From: Acidobacteriota bacterium
GTDB taxonomy: Bacteria; Acidobacteriota; UBA6911
Assembly: GCA_016934555.1 (NCBI GenBank)
Contig: JAFGSS010000146.1
Coordinates: forward strand, 20,061-84,060
Direction: 5' to 3'
Length of the DNA stretch: 64,000 bases
This document shows positions 1,304 to 9,758 of the stretch, in pieces. Numbering within the stretch: position 1 is the stretch's first letter; every line of letters begins with the position of its first letter. The notes beneath the pieces were generated by a model, which worked only from the letters and a program-made list of their open reading frames with translations, made no database searches and was not told where the DNA came from. The position numbers and the translations under genes are program-made.

Positions 1304-1831
1304 CTAGCGGCTTCCGATCATGGACAGCGCGTGGCCGAGTTCGGGCAGGATGATCGATTCCATCGCCAGCTGGCAGGCCCGGGGGCTCCCGGGCAGGCAG
1401 AAGAGGATCTTTCCCCCGATGGTGCCGGCCAGGGCGCGGGAAAGAATGGCCGCGCTCTTCACCTGCGGGTAGCTGAGGAACATGAAGAGGGCGTTGAAGC
1501 CTGGGAGTTCCTTGTCGAGCATGTCCCTGACCGCCTCGATCGTGACGTCGCTCGGAGCGAGCCCCGTCCCGCCCGTGGTGATGATGGCCTGGATCTTCCC
1601 GTTCCGGACCAGGGCGCGCACGGCCGCCCGCAGCCGCCGGCGATCGTCGGGGAGGACCTTGCGCACGGTCACCTCGTGGCCGTGGCTTTCGAGAAGCTCC
1701 TGGATCACGTCCCCGGACCTGTCGCTGGCCAGGGTGCGTGAGGAGGAGAGGGTGAGGACCCCGACTCCGGCGCGGACGTCGGCGTGGGCCTTGTGTTCCG
1801 CCGCTGAATCCGGCAGCTTTCGTTTCGTCAT
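1304..1831 (-). CDS. Molybdenum cofactor biosynthesis protein MoaB/MogA family
   Basis: The GKIQAIITTGGTGLAPSDVTIEAV...ILFCLPGSP motifs match the MogA/MoaB fold. Start was moved to the internal ATG (MTKRKLP) at 1831..1829. Its stop abuts the HAD gene start. Confidence 0.8.
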   Translation of the reverse strand: MTKRKLPDSAAEHKAHADVRAGVGVLTLSSSRTLASDRSGDVIQELLESHGHEVTVRKVLPDDRRRLRAAVRALVRNGKIQAIITTGGTGLAPSDVTIEAVRDMLDKELPGFNALFMFLSYPQVKSAAILSRALAGTIGGKILFCLPGSPRACQLAMESIILPELGHALSMIGSR

Positions 1832-1884
1832 GGCTCCGCACTCCCTCCTGTAAAGGAGCCATGATGCCATGCCCCGGCCCGTTT

Positions 1885-2376
1885 TTAAAGCGGGATCGCG
1901 CCGGTGCAGAACCTGCGGAGTACGGGCTCGAAATCGGAACCGGTAAGGATCCTGCGGGAGATGTCCTCGACGCGGCGCTCCTCGGCTTCATCGCACGGGG
2001 GGAGGGCGTCCGCGCCCTCCCCCAGGATGCTGCTCAGCCGGACCATGTGGACGATTTCATGGGTCAGGATATAAACAAAAAAGGGGTAGAGGCGGTCGGT
2101 GAGCCGTTCCCGCCTGGCCGCGGCCAGGATGCCGGGGTCGTTGAGCTCGATGCGGTAAAAATCGAAAAGGCGGTCGCGGTGCGCCTGCTGCACCGGGCGG
2201 ACTCTCGCCAGCGCCGGGTCCGGAAGGGGTTCCCACTCGGTGTCCTTCTGGGTCAGGAGATCGTAGCGGAGCTGTTCCCAGCGGAAGGGGGGGATGCGGT
2301 AATACTCCATCGTGCGTTCTTCCGCGTCGTTCAGGGCCTCGACCAGCAGGCTTCTCTGTGGATGCGAAAACGGCAT
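1885..2376 (-). CDS. Hypothetical small protein with HExxH motif (putative zinc-peptidase-like)
   Basis: 163-aa ORF containing FVYILTHEIVHMVR. Its composition is protein-like, unlike the + strand mirror ORF 1861..2526. Start is uncertain; an alternative ATG lies at 2310. Confidence 0.5.
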   Translation of the reverse strand: MPFSHPQRSLLVEALNDAEERTMEYYRIPPFRWEQLRYDLLTQKDTEWEPLPDPALARVRPVQQAHRDRLFDFYRIELNDPGILAAARRERLTDRLYPFFVYILTHEIVHMVRLSSILGEGADALPPCDEAEERRVEDISRRILTGSDFEPVLRRFCTGAIPL

Positions 2377-2392
2377 GGCCCCCCCAAAAAGG

Positions 2393-2701
2393 TCAGACCT
2401 TGCTTTCGGAAACCGTGCTCCCGGCCCCCGCCGTGGACCCGGATTCCGCGGGTTTGGACGGACTCGCGCTTGAGTTCGACGTTTCCGTCCCCGACGGGGA
2501 GGAGGAACGCTTGGCGTAGTCGGTGAGGTACCATCCGCTCCCCTTGAGCTGGAAGCTCGAATGGCTGATCAACTTCTCTACCCTGGCTTTGCAGAACCGG
2601 CATTCGGTGAGCGGCTCGTCGGACACCTTCTGGAAAGCCTCGAAAATTTCGCCGCATTTGGTGCACTGGTACTCGTAGATAGGCACGGCTCCAACCTCCA
2701 T
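2393..2701 (-). CDS. FmdB-family zinc-ribbon protein with Ser-rich C-terminal tail
   Basis: MEVGAVPIYEYQCTKCGEIFEAFQKVSDEPLTECRFCKA shows the CxxC...CxxC FmdB signature. The first ATG is at 2701; the track begins at an upstream TTG. Confidence 0.75.
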   Translation of the reverse strand: MEVGAVPIYEYQCTKCGEIFEAFQKVSDEPLTECRFCKARVEKLISHSSFQLKGSGWYLTDYAKRSSSPSGTETSNSSASPSKPAESGSTAGAGSTVSESKV

Positions 2702-2794
2702 ACATTGCTTTGATTGCCGTTGCAAAGATAATATCGAAAAGCCGCGGAGTCAAACGCCGGGGAAAGATTCTGCCCCCCGCCTCGGACCGGCGGG

Positions 2795-5044
2795 TCAGGC
2801 CTCGTGCCCGAAAATCTCGGTGCGGAAGAAGCGGACCAGGGCCTCCTTGCGGCGGCGGTCCCCGGCGTGCAGGGGGATCAGGCTCCTGGGAGGCCACCGG
2901 AGCAGCGTCATTTCGTATTCCATCGTGAGCCCCCTGCCGGTAAGGTACCAGCAGAAGAGCAGCCCGAACAGCAGCCCCGGGGGGATGAATCCGCCGTCCT
3001 CGTTGATCGTGATGCCGAAGACCCCCGGATCGGCCTGGTCGGGGACCATGCGGGCCAGACGGAGGTAGGCCCTCAGCCCGTCATCGGAGAGGAAACTCCG
3101 CCTCTCGCCGGGGGGGCTGAGGACGATTTCGTAGCGGCGGGAGCCGTTCTGCCGGATCCAGCGGCGCTGGCGGACATAGCTCCCCAGCAGCGACTCGCCG
3201 AGCGCCACCAGGAGGTCGTCCCTGAGCCTGGAGGGATGGGATTGAAGATCCTCGTGCAGGTAGAGAAATCGGTCCTCCGGGCTGAAATATCCCAGCACGT
3301 TGTCCCAGTCGGTGCTCCGGTCCCAGTGGGCTGCGGGCCGGAGGCGCACCCCCCGGAAGAACTCCAGGTGGCGGCTCCGGATGTCGCGGTTGTCCCACGC
3401 GACCTTCATGAACAGGTCGCGCAGCCAGGCCGGCCTGAAGACCTTGCCGTCCAGGGCGGTCCGTATGGAATCGAGATGGCGGCAGAGGAGGGGGGCCCGG
3501 CCGCCGGCCGCCTGGGGCTCCCGTCCCTCCTCCTTCCGGCGGGGGGGCTCCCCGCTGCGGAGGTTCCACGCCGCCCCCCTTCCGGGATGGTGGTCGGTGT
3601 AGAGCAGGGTGCGGATGGCCAGGGCGAACCTGCCCGGGTCGTGATGAATAGCGAGCGTTGTCTCGGGCCGGTTCGGGGAGAAGAGTGTGGCTTCGACCGG
3701 GTGGACGCCCATGGCCTCCACCGCGCCGCGGTCGAGGTGGATGGGGCTCTTGCCCTCGAGCGCGTAATTGCGCAGGATGTTTCCCGGGATATGCTCCAGG
3801 TTGGCGCTCAGCACGACGTCGAACAGTCCCCGGATCCCCTGCGGCACATTCCGGTCATAGGCTTCGACCAGTTCCGAGACGAGGAACCCGCGCGCCTGGT
3901 TCTTGAGCGAAATGTCCGTTTCCCCCTCCTGGACCCAGGAGTTGGCCGCGAGAATTTTCAGGGCGCCGCGGTTGGCGCGGATGGCGGCGGTGATCGGCTC
4001 CAGCTGGAGGATGGGGATGATGCTGGTGTACAGGCTTCCGGGCGCGAGGAGGATCAGGTCCGCCTCCCGGATCGCCCTCGTCACCGCGGCGCCGACTACG
4101 GGCCGGCTGGTGAACAGGGCCGTCACCCTGTCCACCGGCGTGTCCCGGCGGGCGGATGCCGACTTGCTCTGCCCGTAGACCGCCACCCCGTTGGCATAGC
4201 GGAACTCCAGCTGCCCCGGCGTCGAGGTGGCCGGAAGGATACGACCGGTCGGGGCCCCGATCAGGGAGGCGATATGGTCGATGCCCCCCTGGATCTCTCC
4301 CAGCCCCGGCGGCCGGTCGATTCGTCCCCGCGCCGCCCGGAATATGGCGGCCGCGAGCAGCAGGTTTCCCAGGGCGTGGCCGGCCGGGCGGATGCCCAGG
4401 CCCGGCGTCGGCGCACAGGCGTAGGCGCCCAGCTCTGTCAGCGCCCCGGCAAGGCTTTCGGGGCACAACGGGCGCATGGCCCGGGGGAGGACGAGCAGGG
4501 GGTCGGCCGCCTGCCGGCGGTTTCGGGGATGCTCGTCGAATCGGTGATTGAACAGGCGGTGAACCAGCCGGACCAGCTCGAGCGCCCTGTCCCCGGAAAG
4601 CGCGTATGTGCGCTCGAGATTCCGGGGAAGGATATAGGAAAGCAGCAGCTTCCGGATATCGCCCACGCCGATCATGGGCAGCGACTGCAGCAGCCGTCCG
4701 GTCGATCCGCCGTCGTCGGTCGTGCAGACGATGGCGGTAAGATGCGGGAAGAACCGCTTCAGTCCCGCAAACGGATCGTCGGGCCAGCCCGGCGTCTGGG
4801 AGTTGCCCCCCACGATCGTGGACAGGCCCGTTCCCCCTCCCAGGACCGCGACCCGCGCATGCCGCGGGTCGAAGCGGAGTACCTCCTCCGCCTGCTTGTG
4901 CATCTCCTCGGCAGGCGTATCGGAGCCCTGCCCGGTCAGGAGGAATTCCACCAGGTTCTCGACCGGTGTCCGCGACCCGTCCGGGGGCCAGAATACCGCC
5001 CGGGGCCAGTCCGAAAAGAGATCTTTGTCTGCCACGCGACGCAT
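2795..5044 (-). CDS. YvcK/CofD-family (UPF0052, gluconeogenesis-factor-like) protein with long C-terminal extension
   Basis: VAVLGGGTGLSTIVGG ... LTAIVCTTDDGGSTGRL are the diagnostic UPF0052/YvcK motifs. Total length is 749 aa against a typical 320-450 aa. The C-terminal ~300 aa has no recognisable family. Confidence 0.8.
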   Translation of the reverse strand: MRRVADKDLFSDWPRAVFWPPDGSRTPVENLVEFLLTGQGSDTPAEEMHKQAEEVLRFDPRHARVAVLGGGTGLSTIVGGNSQTPGWPDDPFAGLKRFFPHLTAIVCTTDDGGSTGRLLQSLPMIGVGDIRKLLLSYILPRNLERTYALSGDRALELVRLVHRLFNHRFDEHPRNRRQAADPLLVLPRAMRPLCPESLAGALTELGAYACAPTPGLGIRPAGHALGNLLLAAAIFRAARGRIDRPPGLGEIQGGIDHIASLIGAPTGRILPATSTPGQLEFRYANGVAVYGQSKSASARRDTPVDRVTALFTSRPVVGAAVTRAIREADLILLAPGSLYTSIIPILQLEPITAAIRANRGALKILAANSWVQEGETDISLKNQARGFLVSELVEAYDRNVPQGIRGLFDVVLSANLEHIPGNILRNYALEGKSPIHLDRGAVEAMGVHPVEATLFSPNRPETTLAIHHDPGRFALAIRTLLYTDHHPGRGAAWNLRSGEPPRRKEEGREPQAAGGRAPLLCRHLDSIRTALDGKVFRPAWLRDLFMKVAWDNRDIRSRHLEFFRGVRLRPAAHWDRSTDWDNVLGYFSPEDRFLYLHEDLQSHPSRLRDDLLVALGESLLGSYVRQRRWIRQNGSRRYEIVLSPPGERRSFLSDDGLRAYLRLARMVPDQADPGVFGITINEDGGFIPPGLLFGLLFCWYLTGRGLTMEYEMTLLRWPPRSLIPLHAGDRRRKEALVRFFRTEIFGHEA

Positions 5045-5064
5045 GTCCGCTAAAAGTCGGGAGG

Positions 5065-5757
5065 TTACAGGATTCCCTGTTTGAAGGCGAAAGAGACGGC
5101 CTGCGCCTTGCTGTGCAGGTCGAGTTTCACCAGGATGTTCTGTATGTGATTTCTGGCCGTGTAATGGCTGATATCGAGCTTTCGGGCCAGCGCCTTGGTG
5201 GAAAGACCCTCGGCAAGCAGGGTCAGTACCTCGAATTCACGCGCCGACAGCGCCGCGAAGGCGGGCCGGCCTGCCTGCCTTGGAGGCTGGATGCCGCATC
5301 CTTCCGCCGGTCCGGCACAGGACGCGGCCGCGTTCGATCCGGAGGATTTCAGTTCCGCGAGAAAGCGGTCGAGGGCGAACTCCATCCTCCTGTCCCGGGT
5401 CACGTCGCGCAGGATGTGCGTGACCAGGGGGGACTCGGAACCGGTGCTCGACAGGAGGGTGACATTGATCCAGACCGGGCGGCCGGAGCTGTGGACGGCC
5501 TCGAGGTCGAAATTCCCCCGGGGCGTTCCTTCGACCCCGCTCCGGTGAACCGCGCAATCCTGGCCGCAGGGCCCCCCCCTGCCGGGCGCTTTCCCGGAAA
5601 TTACCTGGTAACAGCTCCGGTGGAGGGTGTCCGATTCGGGGATGCCCAGGATCTTTTCCGCCCCCTGGTTCCAGCGGACGACGCGCTTGTGGGCGTCGGT
5701 GATGAAGACCCCGTCGGCCGTGTTGCAGAGAATATCCAGATAGTCGCTCTGGCGCAT
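5065..5757 (-). CDS. PAS-domain / LuxR-type HTH transcriptional regulator
   Basis: Start was moved to ATG at 5757 (MRQSDYLDILCNTADGVFITDAHKRVVRWNQGAEKILG, PAS-like). The C-terminal LSAREFEVLTLLAEGLSTKALARKLDISHYTARNHIQNILVKLDL is a LuxR/GerE helix-turn-helix. The track's upstream 94 aa are low-complexity. Confidence 0.75.
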   Translation of the reverse strand: MRQSDYLDILCNTADGVFITDAHKRVVRWNQGAEKILGIPESDTLHRSCYQVISGKAPGRGGPCGQDCAVHRSGVEGTPRGNFDLEAVHSSGRPVWINVTLLSSTGSESPLVTHILRDVTRDRRMEFALDRFLAELKSSGSNAAASCAGPAEGCGIQPPRQAGRPAFAALSAREFEVLTLLAEGLSTKALARKLDISHYTARNHIQNILVKLDLHSKAQAVSFAFKQGIL

Positions 5758-5824
5758 GCCGCCATGCCCCCCGGCTGTGCTTCCATGCTCCCTGATCCCG
5801 GGCGCCGAGGCGCCCCGGGATTTT

Positions 5825-8800
5825 TCAGTGGATTCCACGGAATTTGGACTGAAGAATGGCGATCTTCTCCTGAAGGGTGGGTGCCGGCCCGTCGGAAGCC
5901 GGATCCTCGTTCCGGTCGGGCGCAGGGGTGTTCTCCGGCTTCCGGGAACCCTCCGGTTTTCGGGGGCCCCGTCTGCGGCCGGAGGCTTCCCGCGAACGGC
6001 CGGCCCCGGGCCGGTCCGGGCGGGAGGCGTTCCGGGCATCCGGACCGGTCCCGCCGCCGTTCTGCGCTTCTCGGGGCGTCGGGGGCGTCTTCCGCACGCG
6101 GCGCTGCGGCTTCTGACGTCGGCGGCCTCCTCCCAGGAGCGCCTTCATGGACAGCCCTATTCTCTGGGTTTCCATCTCGACCGAAAGGACCTTCACCTGC
6201 ACGATGTCGCCCACTTTCACCGCCTCGCGCGGATCGCGGATGAACCGGTTGGACATCTGGCTCAGGTGCACCAGCCCGTCCTGGCGGACCCCGATGTCCA
6301 CGAAGGCTCCGAAATTGGTGACATTGGTGACCGTCCCTTCCAACGTCATGCCCGGTTCAAGGTCCGACATCTGCCTGACGTCGGACCGGAACTTGGGAAC
6401 CCGGAACGCCTTTCTGGGATCCCGTCCGGGGTGCAGGAGCTCTTCCCGGATGTCGTCGAGGGTGGGGAGCCCGATTTCGTCGGTCACGAAATCATCGAGC
6501 TTCAGCGAGGTCACTTTTTCCCGGTTCTCCAGGAGTTCCCGGACCTCCCCGCCCTGGGCCGCGGCCATCTTTTCGACCACCGGATAGGCCTCGGGGTGAA
6601 TCGCGGTGCGGTCCAGCGGATGGTCCCCGTCCGGGATGCGCAGGAAACCGGCTGCCTGCCGGTAGCTGGCGTCATCCAGCCCGATTGCGGTTTTGAGCCC
6701 TTCGCGCGATCTGAAAAAATCCTGGGAGTTGCGGAAGCCCACGATCTTGCGGGCGAGCTTGTCATTGAGACCCGACACGTAGCGCAGGAGCGATTCCCTG
6801 GCCGTATTCGGGTTGACGCCCACGCTGTTGACGCAGTACTGGACCGTCTGTATCAACCCGCGGTGCAGCTCCTTCTGATCCACGTCATGCTGGTACTGTC
6901 CGACACCGATGAGCTTCGGGTCGATTTTCACCAGTTCGGCGAGCGGGTCCTGCAGTCTCCGTGCGAGACTCATGGCGCAGCGCAGCGACGCGCCGGAATC
7001 GGGCAGCTCCTCACGGGCGATGCGGGACGATGCGTAGATGGCTATGCCGGCGTCGTTGACGCTGGCGATCATGATATCGTTCGAGCCCGTCTCTGTAACG
7101 ATCTGTCGCAGGAGGTTTTCCAGTTCACGCGCCCCGGTTCCGGTCCCGAACGCCACCGCCCGCACCTTGTGCCGGGCGATAAGGTCCCGGAGGACGGTTC
7201 CGGCATCCCCAGCCGGCGCTACCGCCTCGGGCGCTGCCGCTTCGGGCGCTGCCGCTTCGGGCGCTGCCGCCTCAGGCGCTGCCGCCTCAGGCGCTGCCGC
7301 CTCAGGCGCTGCCGCCTCAGGCGCTGCCGCTTCGGGTGCTGTTGCCTCGGGCGCTGCAGCTTCGGGTGCCGTCGCCTCGGGCGCTGCAGCTTCGGGTGCC
7401 GTCGCCTCGGGCGCTGCGGCTTCGGGTGCCGTCGCCTCGGGCGCTGCAGCTTCGGGTGCCGTCGCCTCGGGCGCTGCGGCTTCGGGTGCCGTCGCCTCGG
7501 GTGCTACGGCTTCGGGTGCCGTCGCCTCGGGCGCTACGGCTTCGGGTGCCGTCGCCTCGGGCGCTGCAGCCTCGGGCGATACAGCCTCAGAAGCCGTTGC
7601 CTCGGGGGGAGCAGGTTCGGGCACTGCCGCATCAGGGACCGCTGTTTCCGTGTCGGCCCCGGCGTCGGCTGCCGGCGGGCATGGGACTTCATCCCGCCCT
7701 GACGAGATTTCAAGCTTGTCGAGCGCGGGGGCGTCACCCAGCACCGCACCGATCGGTCCGGCAAGCGATTCGGCTCGGGGAGCGGTGGGGGGCGCGGGGG
7801 AAGTCCCGGACCCGGGGGTGAACCGGACCCTGGCCCCTTCCAGAAACCTGCCTGTTTCATCGATCACGGCCACGCTGCATTCGTTTCCCTTGCCCCAATC
7901 CACCCCCATGGCGACGATCGGACCGGCCGGGGGAGACAAGAGCAGGTTGGCCAGGTTTTCCTGGAATATCCTGATGGCTTCCCGGTCGGCGCGTTCCTTG
8001 AGCTGGCTCCGGACTTCCGACTCGATCATCGGCCGCAGGATGCGGTTGTAGCTTTCACGGACGGCCGCCTCGATCACCGGGGTGAACAGGGACTCCCGGT
8101 CCCTGATGTGGGCCGACGCCAGGTATTCGATGGCCTTGGCGTTGTCCCCCTCGATGGAGGAGATGAGCACCCCCTCCTTGCACCCCCTGCGGATGGCCAG
8201 AACCCTGTGAGACGGGATCGTGGTGACAGGCTCCCTGCGGTCGTAGTACATCGCGTACTTGGTCTTCTGCCCGGCCTTGGCGGGGACCACGGAGGATGCC
8301 AGCAGGCCCTCGCTCCAGAGCATCTCGCGCAGTTTTTTGCGATGCTCGAAGTTTTCCGCCACGTATTCCGCGAGGATATCCACGACCCCTTCGAGCGCCT
8401 GCTCGCGGTTGAGGATGCCCTTGGAGGGATCGACAAAAACGTCGATGTGCTCCTCCGCGCTCCAGGCGTCGAGCTCCTGGTTCCAGAAGTATTCGGCCAG
8501 GGGCTGGAGCCCCTTTTCGATCGCTTCCATGGCGCGCGTCTTCTTCCGGGAGCGGAACTGGTGCTCGAGATCGGCCAGTTCGGCCCTGGAAAAGGAGCTT
8601 TCGATCTGCGTCCTGAGTTCCTCGGTCAGCCGTCCCTGTTCGGAAAGGGTCTTCGTCAGGGACGACCGCTGATCGAGCACCCCCCGGTAGTGGGCCATGC
8701 GGTCCTGGATGGCCCGGACTTTCGTTTCATCCATCCCCGCGGTGGCTTCTTTGCGGTAGCGGACGATGAAGGGACCGGTGAACCCGGTTTTCAGAAGGGT

Positions 8801-8872
8801 GACGACGGCCGAAACGGAAGCTTCGGGTATCGCGGTTTCCAGGGCAATTCTACCTATGATCGCAGCATCCAT
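5825..8872 (-). CDS. tex: Transcription accessory protein Tex (YqgF/RuvC-like plus HhH plus S1 domains) with internal APEAx repeat insertion
   Basis: The N-terminus MDAAIIGRIALE...GFTGPFIVRYRKE aligns with E. coli Tex (PFIARYRKE). An S1 domain lies near the C-terminus (GMTLEGTVTNVTNFGAFVDIG). About 30 copies of A-P-E-A-[AT] are inserted in the middle. Confidence 0.9.
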   Translation of the reverse strand: MDAAIIGRIALETAIPEASVSAVVTLLKTGFTGPFIVRYRKEATAGMDETKVRAIQDRMAHYRGVLDQRSSLTKTLSEQGRLTEELRTQIESSFSRAELADLEHQFRSRKKTRAMEAIEKGLQPLAEYFWNQELDAWSAEEHIDVFVDPSKGILNREQALEGVVDILAEYVAENFEHRKKLREMLWSEGLLASSVVPAKAGQKTKYAMYYDRREPVTTIPSHRVLAIRRGCKEGVLISSIEGDNAKAIEYLASAHIRDRESLFTPVIEAAVRESYNRILRPMIESEVRSQLKERADREAIRIFQENLANLLLSPPAGPIVAMGVDWGKGNECSVAVIDETGRFLEGARVRFTPGSGTSPAPPTAPRAESLAGPIGAVLGDAPALDKLEISSGRDEVPCPPAADAGADTETAVPDAAVPEPAPPEATASEAVSPEAAAPEATAPEAVAPEATAPEAVAPEATAPEAAAPEATAPEAAAPEATAPEAAAPEATAPEAAAPEATAPEAAAPEATAPEAAAPEAAAPEAAAPEAAAPEAAAPEAAAPEAAAPEAVAPAGDAGTVLRDLIARHKVRAVAFGTGTGARELENLLRQIVTETGSNDIMIASVNDAGIAIYASSRIAREELPDSGASLRCAMSLARRLQDPLAELVKIDPKLIGVGQYQHDVDQKELHRGLIQTVQYCVNSVGVNPNTARESLLRYVSGLNDKLARKIVGFRNSQDFFRSREGLKTAIGLDDASYRQAAGFLRIPDGDHPLDRTAIHPEAYPVVEKMAAAQGGEVRELLENREKVTSLKLDDFVTDEIGLPTLDDIREELLHPGRDPRKAFRVPKFRSDVRQMSDLEPGMTLEGTVTNVTNFGAFVDIGVRQDGLVHLSQMSNRFIRDPREAVKVGDIVQVKVLSVEMETQRIGLSMKALLGGGRRRQKPQRRVRKTPPTPREAQNGGGTGPDARNASRPDRPGAGRSREASGRRRGPRKPEGSRKPENTPAPDRNEDPASDGPAPTLQEKIAILQSKFRGIH
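7215..7640. repeat. Tandem 15-nt (5-codon) repeat, about 28-30 copies, inside tex
   Basis: Direct repeats gcttcgggcgctgcc / gcctcaggcgctgcc / gcttcgggtgccgtc... are read on the minus strand as APEAA/APEAT/APEAV. They also generate artefactual + strand ORFs (ASGAAASG..., LQLRVPSPRA...). Confidence 0.9.
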
Positions 8873-8957
8873 GGGCGCTATTCTTACCGAGGTGGAAGGC
8901 AGAATCAACCGGTAAATGCGGGCCCGGGCCGATTCGAAGCCGCACGGGCAGCCGCAT

Positions 8958-9758
8958 CTACCAGGGGAAGCCGATTCCGGGGGAGATTCCTATGGTCCTC
9001 CGGTTCGAGGCGGGCGGCTGCGGTTGCACGACTTGGGGGCGCCGCTCGGCGTTGCGGCCGGCATCGCGGATTTCATCGGCCGTGAATTCCAGCTCAAGGT
9101 AGGAGAACCGCAACGGTTTGAGCAATTCGAGATCGAACCGGGTGCCGGGCGCGATCACCAGGTCGCGCCCCCGCGAGAAGAGGACCGAGGCGACACCGGC
9201 GGCGGCCCCGGCCCCGGCGCCGACGGCGGCTCCCGATCCGCGGCCGATGACGGCCCCGATGATGGCCCCCTGCGCGGTGGTGCCCACGATCGTCCCGGCG
9301 TCCTCTCCCTCCGAGCCCGCGGCCTTGACCGTTTCGGAGCCGCGGTCGATGCTTTCGTCCCCCGGTCCGTGCAGGCCGCGGAAGGAGGCCGCCAGGTCGC
9401 GGCGGATCCCGTTGGGAAGCAGGATGTCGTCGAAGCGCAGCGCGATCCTCCCCTTGCCCCGGATCCGCCCGGGGCGCTCGACCATCGTCACGGTTCCCCT
9501 GATGGTGGATCCCCGGGGGATGACGAGCCGCTGATCGATCCAGACGGGGTAGGTGGTGTCGGCGTAGAAGGTGTCGCTTTCCTTGCTGCTGTGCGTGTTC
9601 AGGTAGTCGGACAGCGCGATGGGGATAACCGTCCCGGCGGGAACGACCATTTCCTCCAGGGGCCGGGTTGTGGCTTCCTCCCCCGGCGCCGCCTCCGCGG
9701 CCGTCAACCCGGACAGGAGCAGCAATGGAACCAGAGCGCGCCAACCCGATATCGGCAT
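8958..9758 (-). CDS. Secreted protein with signal peptide and Gly/Ala-rich (glycine-zipper-like) segment
   Basis: The N-terminus MPISGWRALVPLLLLSGLTAAEAAPG is a signal peptide. The middle segment GAIIGAVIGRGSGAAVGAGAGAAAGVA is Gly/Ala-rich. No confident family assignment. Confidence 0.6.
   Translation of the reverse strand: MPISGWRALVPLLLLSGLTAAEAAPGEEATTRPLEEMVVPAGTVIPIALSDYLNTHSSKESDTFYADTTYPVWIDQRLVIPRGSTIRGTVTMVERPGRIRGKGRIALRFDDILLPNGIRRDLAASFRGLHGPGDESIDRGSETVKAAGSEGEDAGTIVGTTAQGAIIGAVIGRGSGAAVGAGAGAAAGVASVLFSRGRDLVIAPGTRFDLELLKPLRFSYLELEFTADEIRDAGRNAERRPQVVQPQPPASNRRTIGISPGIGFPW

Follow-up and report, generated by a model that had tools for sequence, protein, structure and literature searches.

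A long-form YvcK/GlmR-family protein with an undescribed C-terminal module in Acidobacteriota and other diderm bacteria, and its possible link to amino-sugar metabolism

A 64,000-nucleotide stretch of an Acidobacteriota genome (contig JAFGSS010000146.1 of assembly GCA_016934555.1, hereafter the window) carries a gene for a 749-residue protein in which a CofD-type domain of the YvcK/GlmR kind is fused to a long C-terminal tail, and this fusion is a genuine and widely conserved architecture. The CofD-type fold, the motifs that are retained in it and the glmM, glmU-C, nagB and rapZ genes that surround its homologues in other phyla suggest that this long form may operate in the same physiological circuit as GlmR. 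We therefore give about an even chance to a reading in which it binds nucleotide sugars and tunes amino-sugar flux in the manner of GlmR, with the tail as a partner- or ligand-binding module. Firmicutes and mycobacteria depend on GlmR, also known as YvcK, for the integrity of their envelope and for virulence.

Architecture and conservation of the fusion

The first-pass annotation of the window had described an oversized YvcK/CofD open reading frame (ORF) with an extension of about 300 amino acids (aa), and the profile searches agree with that description, since the Pfam CofD model (PF01933) matches aa 65-454 with an E-value of 1.1e-50 and 172.9 bits against a gathering score of 30, covers profile positions 1-289 of 290 and leaves aa 455-749 uncovered. 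Both signatures named at that stage occur in the translation, GGGTGLS at aa 69-75 and TTDDGGSTGRL at aa 108-118, and the domain additionally carries GDxR, APGSLYTS, NxWxQxGETD and Y427. An AlphaFold2 model of the full-length protein, built from a 36-sequence alignment, reached a predicted local distance difference test (pLDDT) score of 83.5 and a predicted template modelling score of 0.83, with disordered stretches only at aa 1-19 and 499-514, and the N-terminal part has the CofD-type Rossmann-like fold. The earlier proposal of a conserved nucleotide- or nucleotide-sugar-binding scaffold is thus supported.

The closest known systems are GlmR/YvcK of Bacillus subtilis and Listeria monocytogenes (structures 2O2Z/2HZB, 2Q7X, 2PPV and 2P0Y) and the mycobacterial CuvA, from which the long form differs in being more than twice as long and in occurring in diderm, mostly anaerobic phyla. 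The additional length is distributed over several segments. The N-terminal extension (aa 1-64), which has no counterpart in canonical YvcK, contains two predicted helices, and its residues E29 and L36 are invariant among close homologues. Compared with the YvcK of Bacillus halodurans (2O2Z/2HZB), there is a 14-aa insertion past the GGGTG loop and, at aa 137-220, a family-specific helical insertion of about 62 aa net with invariant R168 and P195, which splits the alignment to 2O2Z so that aa 69-136 correspond to chain residues 11-64 and aa 221-450 to chain residues 87-288. A linker of low complexity and poor conservation (about aa 485-515) and the 235-aa C-terminal module complete the protein. 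Apart from this linker, the extension is not of low complexity, as had been claimed, and the module alone folds confidently (pLDDT 89.5).

The coding strand is also clear, since an ORF of the same length on the plus strand (2804..5053) is a shadow ORF in a genome of about 68% G+C, and family matches were obtained only for the minus-strand product. Among 5.8 billion proteins searched, homologues formed at least 120 clusters with 57-92% identity and 94-100% query coverage, most of them about 750 aa long, whose source names, where given, are "YvcK family protein", "CofD family protein" or "uncharacterized cofD-like protein". Moreover, 80 related loci were collected by scanning one genome per species with patterns taken from the C-terminal tail only, and the tail directly follows a CofD part in 77 of them, the remaining three being cut off by the end of the contig.

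It is hardly credible, then, that a frameshift in sequencing or assembly has merged two genes into the long ORF, or that it is a true CofD of coenzyme F420 biosynthesis, and its unusual length is the sole point in favour of either. Full-length homologues in many independent assemblies led us to reject the artefact, and the refutation named in the first-pass annotation, a separate C-terminal gene after correction of a frameshift or stop, does not apply. The score for F420 CofD/FbiA, the 2-phospho-L-lactate/phosphoenolpyruvate transferase (TIGR01819), is 19.2 bits against an equivalog cut-off of 257.45, and that for the CofD-like protein of the GAK system (TIGR04357) is 44.5 bits against 340, both so far under their cut-offs that these identities were discarded. 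No F420 genes were seen among the annotated neighbours of the fusion gene here, or among the genes that recur beside it in the related loci.

The hosts of the long form in these loci belong to Acidobacteriota, Desulfobacterota, Verrucomicrobiota, Kiritimatiellae, Lentisphaerota and other bacteria of the Planctomycetes-Verrucomicrobia-Chlamydiae (PVC) group, which indicates that the architecture is old and widespread. Among the Desulfobacterota are the cultured Syntrophus buswellii and S. aciditrophicus, as well as Syntrophobacteraceae, Desulfobacteraceae and Desulfatiglans. The suggestion that the fusion is lineage-specific is therefore refuted, given that the identical architecture spans at least four phyla.

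Amino-sugar gene neighbourhoods and possible function

It has been reported that B. subtilis GlmR binds UDP-N-acetylglucosamine (UDP-GlcNAc) and, depending on this ligand, either pairs with YvcJ, a RapZ homologue, or stimulates GlmS (PMC7525490, PMC6171935), and that the GlmR proteins of Listeria, Staphylococcus and Bacillus form UDP-GlcNAc from UTP and GlcNAc-1-phosphate in vitro, an activity that is lost in a D40A/D41A/N198A mutant (PMC10128056). When the functional residues published in these studies (PMC7525490, PMC10128056) were placed on the long form through the 2O2Z alignment, D110 and D111 of the TTDDGGS motif were found to correspond to D38/D39 of B. halodurans YvcK and D40/D41 of L. 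monocytogenes GlmR, and to be invariant among 22 divergent representatives of the family. Likewise, the invariant Y427 aligns with Y265 of B. halodurans, the equivalent of the UDP-GlcNAc-binding Tyr265 of B. subtilis GlmR.

For neighbour counts, the ORFs of all 80 loci were called and clustered; the cluster of the fusion gene itself comprises 71 loci, a lower bound, because in six loci of high GC content the ORF calling took an opposite-strand shadow ORF (cluster c15) instead. The glmM gene lies near the fusion gene in 27 loci (TIGR01455, 622 bits against a cut-off of 447), a protein of about 415 aa corresponding only to the C-terminal acetyltransferase half of GlmU (positions ~239-438) in 20, and a NagB-like protein in 15. 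In five loci RapZ (NF003828, 325 bits against a cut-off of 244) is encoded, invariably by the gene that follows the fusion gene downstream at a distance of -4 to 104 nt. Of the 80 loci, 36 contain one or more of these four neighbours, and many of the others are short contigs. The order and orientation of the genes vary while their adjacency is kept, for example as NagB-GlmM-GlmUC divergent from the fusion gene or as fusion-GlmUC-GlmM-NagB on one strand, which is a signature of functional linkage. In one Acidobacteriota metagenome-assembled genome (L020), a pyrophosphate-dependent phosphofructokinase, a double-SIS protein, the GlmU-C-like protein, GlmM and the fusion protein are all encoded on one strand. 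Our analysis of the rapZ, glmM, glmU-C and nagB loci thus places the long-form family in the known GlmR/UDP-GlcNAc context. A motif scan, which is a weak negative, detected a GlmU-N-type nucleotidyltransferase motif within about 8 kb in one of the 80 loci and a UAP/NagU-type motif in none.

Some of the neighbouring genes deserve description in their own right. The double-SIS protein is weakly similar to NagB-II, GlmD and the isomerase domain of GlmS, and is encoded with the phosphofructokinase just upstream of the fusion gene in some Acidobacteriota (L020:1616-2629, L037:5334-6347 and L031:392-2500, in the last as part of a 702-aa ORF). The GlmU-C-like protein (cluster c3; for example L049:9137-10387, L048, L055, L075-L077) matches the hexapeptide-repeat half of GlmU in its first ~240 of ~415 aa (E-value 3e-11), the remaining ~180 aa being apparently helical and unassigned, and its gene usually adjoins both the fusion gene and glmM. 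Another cluster (c14; for example L052:21-929, L048, L055, L058, L059, L075) encodes a protein of about 300 aa in eight amino-sugar clusters; it has no NCBIfam match and a faint similarity to NTP_transf_2 (E-value 0.008), and could be a nucleotidyltransferase that bears on the missing step. None of the clusters that recur in these loci is WhiA-like. In two Verrucomicrobiota loci (L060:2497-3987 and L067:8756-10198), the fusion gene is directly followed, after gaps of -4 and 35 nt, by a gene for a protein of 480-496 aa that is rich in Trp, Phe and Tyr, has an apparent signal peptide and no Pfam match.

Based on these observations, we propose that the protein works like the GlmR of Firmicutes. 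Its N-terminal 480 aa would act as a CofD-fold nucleotide-sugar-binding domain by which UDP-GlcNAc, or a nucleotide sugar close to it, is sensed or bound, and a flexible linker joins this domain to the family-specific alpha/beta module. The long form would then adjust the flux into amino-sugar and cell-envelope precursor synthesis, with its tail contacting a partner, for which GlmM, the stand-alone GlmU-type acetyltransferase, an enzyme that forms glucosamine-6-phosphate (GlcN-6-P) and RapZ are candidates. What the analysis shows is the architecture and how far it is conserved, the fold, the motifs kept or lost and the gene neighbourhoods; the ligand, the part played in the pathway and the function of the tail are inferred.

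Several findings weigh against this proposal. The NCBIfam YvcK model (TIGR01826), whose cut-off is 196, gives 126.9 bits, and the insertions break its match into two stretches. R301 of B. subtilis GlmR, which takes part in UDP-GlcNAc binding, is replaced by H467 (the B. halodurans "LRHN" aligns with "IHHD") and by His, Gln or Lys across the family, and N198 of L. monocytogenes GlmR corresponds to I345 (N196 of B. halodurans, "LPNL" aligned with "IPIL", with an offset of +2 between the two numberings that is inferred from the DD motif). Judging from these two replacements and the low score, the ligand may differ from UDP-GlcNAc. Considering that the subfamily cut-off was not reached and that two of the four residues were not retained, we filed the protein as a long-form YvcK/GlmR variant and not as a canonical member; the TIGR01826 and TIGR01819 scores assign it, at the sequence level, to the YvcK side of the CofD superfamily as a divergent branch that is neither an F420 enzyme nor a canonical GlmR. 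In addition, the first-pass annotation had considered the yvcJ(rapZ)-yvcK-whiA neighbourhood absent, which stands for rapZ in the window, where tblastn found no rapZ, glmM, glmU-C-like or nagB-like gene (whiA was not searched), and fails in the relatives that carry rapZ. The pathway link of the window protein is thus taken from homologues with which it shares 50-60% identity. Besides, the mechanism of GlmR is itself disputed between a regulator of GlmS and a uridyltransferase (PMC6171935, PMC10128056, and a 2026 preprint, bioRxiv 10.64898/2026.06.23.733835).

In the main rival explanation, the long form would be an enzyme, a GlcNAc-1-phosphate uridylyltransferase or the catalyst of a related nucleotide-sugar-forming or phospho-transfer step of a split UDP-GlcNAc pathway, whose tail helps to bind the substrate or a partner enzyme. 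Such a role would agree with the activity of Firmicute GlmRs in vitro, with the invariance of D110/D111 and of all phosphate-loop motifs across the long-form family, and with clusters that hold GlmM, a GlmU homologue reduced to its acetyltransferase half and a NagB- or SIS-type GlcN-6-P enzyme next to virtually no recognisable uridylyltransferase. It also recalls split UDP-GlcNAc pathways, since, according to the same preprint (bioRxiv 10.64898/2026.06.23.733835), the acetyltransferase half is often all of GlmU that PVC bacteria encode, and stand-alone GlmU-C genes are reported for that superphylum. However, N198, one of the three residues exchanged in the inactive mutant, is an Ile in the window protein, and the preprint reports that native S. 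aureus GlmR fails to replace NagU and GlmU in vivo. That study pairs GlmU-C with a UAP-like NagU, of which no motif was detected near the fusion gene, and a long CofD protein is absent from the preprint passages searched. Moreover, the uridylyltransferase may be encoded elsewhere in the genome, or the c14 protein could be the transferase instead, and we regard an enzymatic role as somewhat doubtful. We consider unlikely its more specific form, in which the long form would be the missing last UDP-GlcNAc enzyme of diderm anaerobes and Acidobacteriota that have GlmU-C only, with the tail as a pseudo-zincin docking domain; if true, it would offer a natural system that settles whether GlmR-type proteins are enzymes.

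A function that has diverged from amino sugars altogether, for instance towards another nucleotide-linked metabolite, with the glmM and rapZ neighbours as inherited synteny, appears quite improbable. It would account for the score below the YvcK cut-off and the exchanged R301 and N198 positions, for the N-terminal extension and the 62-aa insertion with its invariant R168 near the nucleotide site, and for the unrelated neighbours in Acidobacteriota (Tex, PAS-LuxR, FmdB and a MoaB-like protein). Nevertheless, the linkage to amino-sugar genes recurs in differing gene orders and orientations in several phyla, which argues for selection and not for inherited synteny.

Whether it is a GlmR-like factor, as we propose, or an enzyme, the long form represents a natural experiment on the debate between GlmR as an allosteric GlmS activator and as an accessory uridyltransferase. 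It is conserved in Gram-negative-type phyla, carries an extra domain that databases do not describe, and is often encoded in clusters with all UDP-GlcNAc steps except a recognisable uridylyltransferase. Its presence in the cultured Syntrophus species makes both the question of enzyme or regulator and the role of the new domain directly testable.

The C-terminal module

The tail appears to represent a new domain family. Neither Pfam nor NCBIfam matches aa 455-749, NCBIfam returning only CofD models for the protein, and the tails of 22 members gave no hit to any Pfam model at E<=10, peptidase models included; a profile built from these 22 tails found no PDB sequence at E<=10, and a Foldseek search of the tail against the PDB returned nothing significant (best E-value 0.18). 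The possibility, raised in the first-pass annotation, that a known long CofD variant covers the whole protein can thus be set aside, as no known family or structure covers the tail. We found no paper on the architecture, and databases label it generically. When 1.84 billion cluster representatives were searched exhaustively with HMMER, 91 clusters of tail relatives were identified. In every long relative (669-788 aa) the module is C-terminal, and the short ones inspected start in the "...HHDP..." end of the CofD domain or in mid-sequence, and are most likely fragments of the fusion. A single 243-aa sequence (P0149) has a Met start upstream of the module and is possibly a stand-alone copy; with this possible exception, the module was found behind a CofD domain only. 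This 235-aa tail merits its own domain family in annotation.

The conserved motifs of the tail are WxRSxxWDNxLGY, ALG(E/Q)SLLG, PPGLLFGLxxxWYL, EYEMxLLRW and FFRxxxF. No positions other than H559, P589, G616 and G694 are invariant when divergent members are compared, the near-invariant positions being mainly Trp, Gly, Pro and Phe; in distant members E617, the Glu of ALGESLLG, is replaced by Gln, and H597 by Arg. About 40 invariant residues stand against these four, and such a sharp contrast in constraint speaks for a tail with an accessory function in binding or regulation. On sequence grounds, the tail is most likely a non-catalytic, partner- or ligand-binding regulatory domain, and the Trp-rich WxRSxxWDNxLGY loop together with H559 would be the best candidate for its predicted binding surface. 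The initial description of the extension as uncharacterised therefore stands, and the regulatory output role that had been attached to it is plausible.

It is possible that this undescribed domain has a degenerate zincin-like fold. Non-catalytic or regulatory zincin-like domains are known from MtfA, the Mlc titration factor (3DL1), and from the N-terminal, PA-binding domain of anthrax lethal factor, but the tail has no detectable sequence or profile similarity to either, lacks HExxH, gave no significant Foldseek match, and contains an additional beta-hairpin and C-terminal helices. A direct relationship to MtfA was rejected at the profile level (hhalign probability 0.2%), with the limit that the MtfA profile is shallow, its listed homologues all being at least 73% identical. 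A relationship to the HExxH protein of 163 aa encoded nearby in the window was likewise rejected (hhalign probability 0.7%). The tail is very probably not a peptidase, and an active zincin-type metallopeptidase fused to YvcK is an extremely remote prospect, considering that neither HExxH nor HxxEH is present, that no His or Glu pair is conserved alongside the four invariant residues, and that the searches against peptidase models, the PDB and MtfA gave the negative results described above.

Genes around the fusion in the Acidobacteriota window

The coordinates of the fusion gene, its segments and its immediate neighbours are given in Table 1. As stated in the first-pass annotation, the gene is flanked by a PAS-LuxR regulator gene and an FmdB-type zinc-ribbon gene, and exactly 20 nt separate the PAS-LuxR stop from the fusion ATG at 5044 on the common strand. 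No terminator-like site was found between these two genes, which are probably co-transcribed, and their pairing in the Acidobacteriota-type clade is tight enough to suggest an operon. The longest PAS-LuxR ORF (5065..6039, 324 aa) shares sequence at its start with the 3' end of the Tex gene (5825..8908, minus strand); the conserved form is the one of 230 aa that starts with the ATG at 5757, and homologues elsewhere have about 234 aa. The likely start of the FmdB gene is the GTG at 2686, which is preceded by a GGAGG motif. The promoter-like site listed in Table 1 is the only one in 1800..6100, where shuffled sequence averages 0.4.

Table 1. Features of the fusion gene and its immediate surroundings (window coordinates)
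Feature	Coordinates	Strand	Basis or remark
Long-form YvcK/GlmR-family (CofD-fold) protein gene	2795..5044	-	749 aa + stop; ORF list, homologues, AlphaFold2 model
N-terminal extension, aa 1-64	4853..5044	-	Pfam domain starts at aa 65; 2O2Z/2HZB alignment starts at aa 61-69
CofD/UPF0052 domain, aa 65 to ~484	3593..4852	-	
Helical insertion in CofD domain, aa 137-220	4385..4636	-	Split alignment to 2O2Z; model helices
Linker, ~aa 485-515	3500..3592	-	pLDDT <50 at aa 499-514; consensus undefined there
C-terminal alpha/beta module, aa 516-749, 235 aa	2798..3499	-	Undescribed
PAS-LuxR (GerE helix-turn-helix) regulator, 230 aa	5065..5757	-	Pfam GerE + PAS_9; upstream of fusion gene
FmdB zinc-ribbon gene, 97 aa	2393..2686	-	TIGR02605 68.6 bits, PF09723; downstream of fusion gene
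Sigma-70-like match TTGACT-17-TATCTT	2725..2753	-	Between fusion and FmdB genes; consensus match only

Among the 80 related loci, the PAS-LuxR gene lies directly upstream of the fusion gene in 14 and the FmdB gene downstream in 19, and the 163-aa protein occurs in 19. The recurrence of these genes, and of those for Tex, a HAD hydrolase and a MoCF/MoaB-like protein, is confined to Acidobacteriota-type loci, which makes the neighbours in the window clade-level synteny. The FmdB and PAS-LuxR genes, which had been put forward as informative context, are accordingly weak guides to function, and the UDP-GlcNAc gene set of the other phyla is the more informative one. No match to the anti-phage defence models of PADLOC was obtained for the fusion protein, FmdB or the 163-aa protein.

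The 163-aa protein (1885..2376, minus strand), which is conserved downstream of FmdB, contains an invariant THE(M/I)VHMVR motif (HExxH), is without a Pfam or NCBIfam match and may be an undescribed small zincin-like protein. Inside the Tex-like gene, a 30-nt tandem repeat (7223..7576; 11.8 copies, 92% matches) encodes an insertion of about 120 aa that is rich in Ala, Pro and Glu (APEATAPEAA...) between the central region and the YqgF-like domain. Finally, a 266-aa protein (8958..9758, minus strand) with sub-threshold TrbI-like (32.9 against 35 bits) and Gly-zipper matches adjoins the Tex gene in 14 Acidobacteriota loci.

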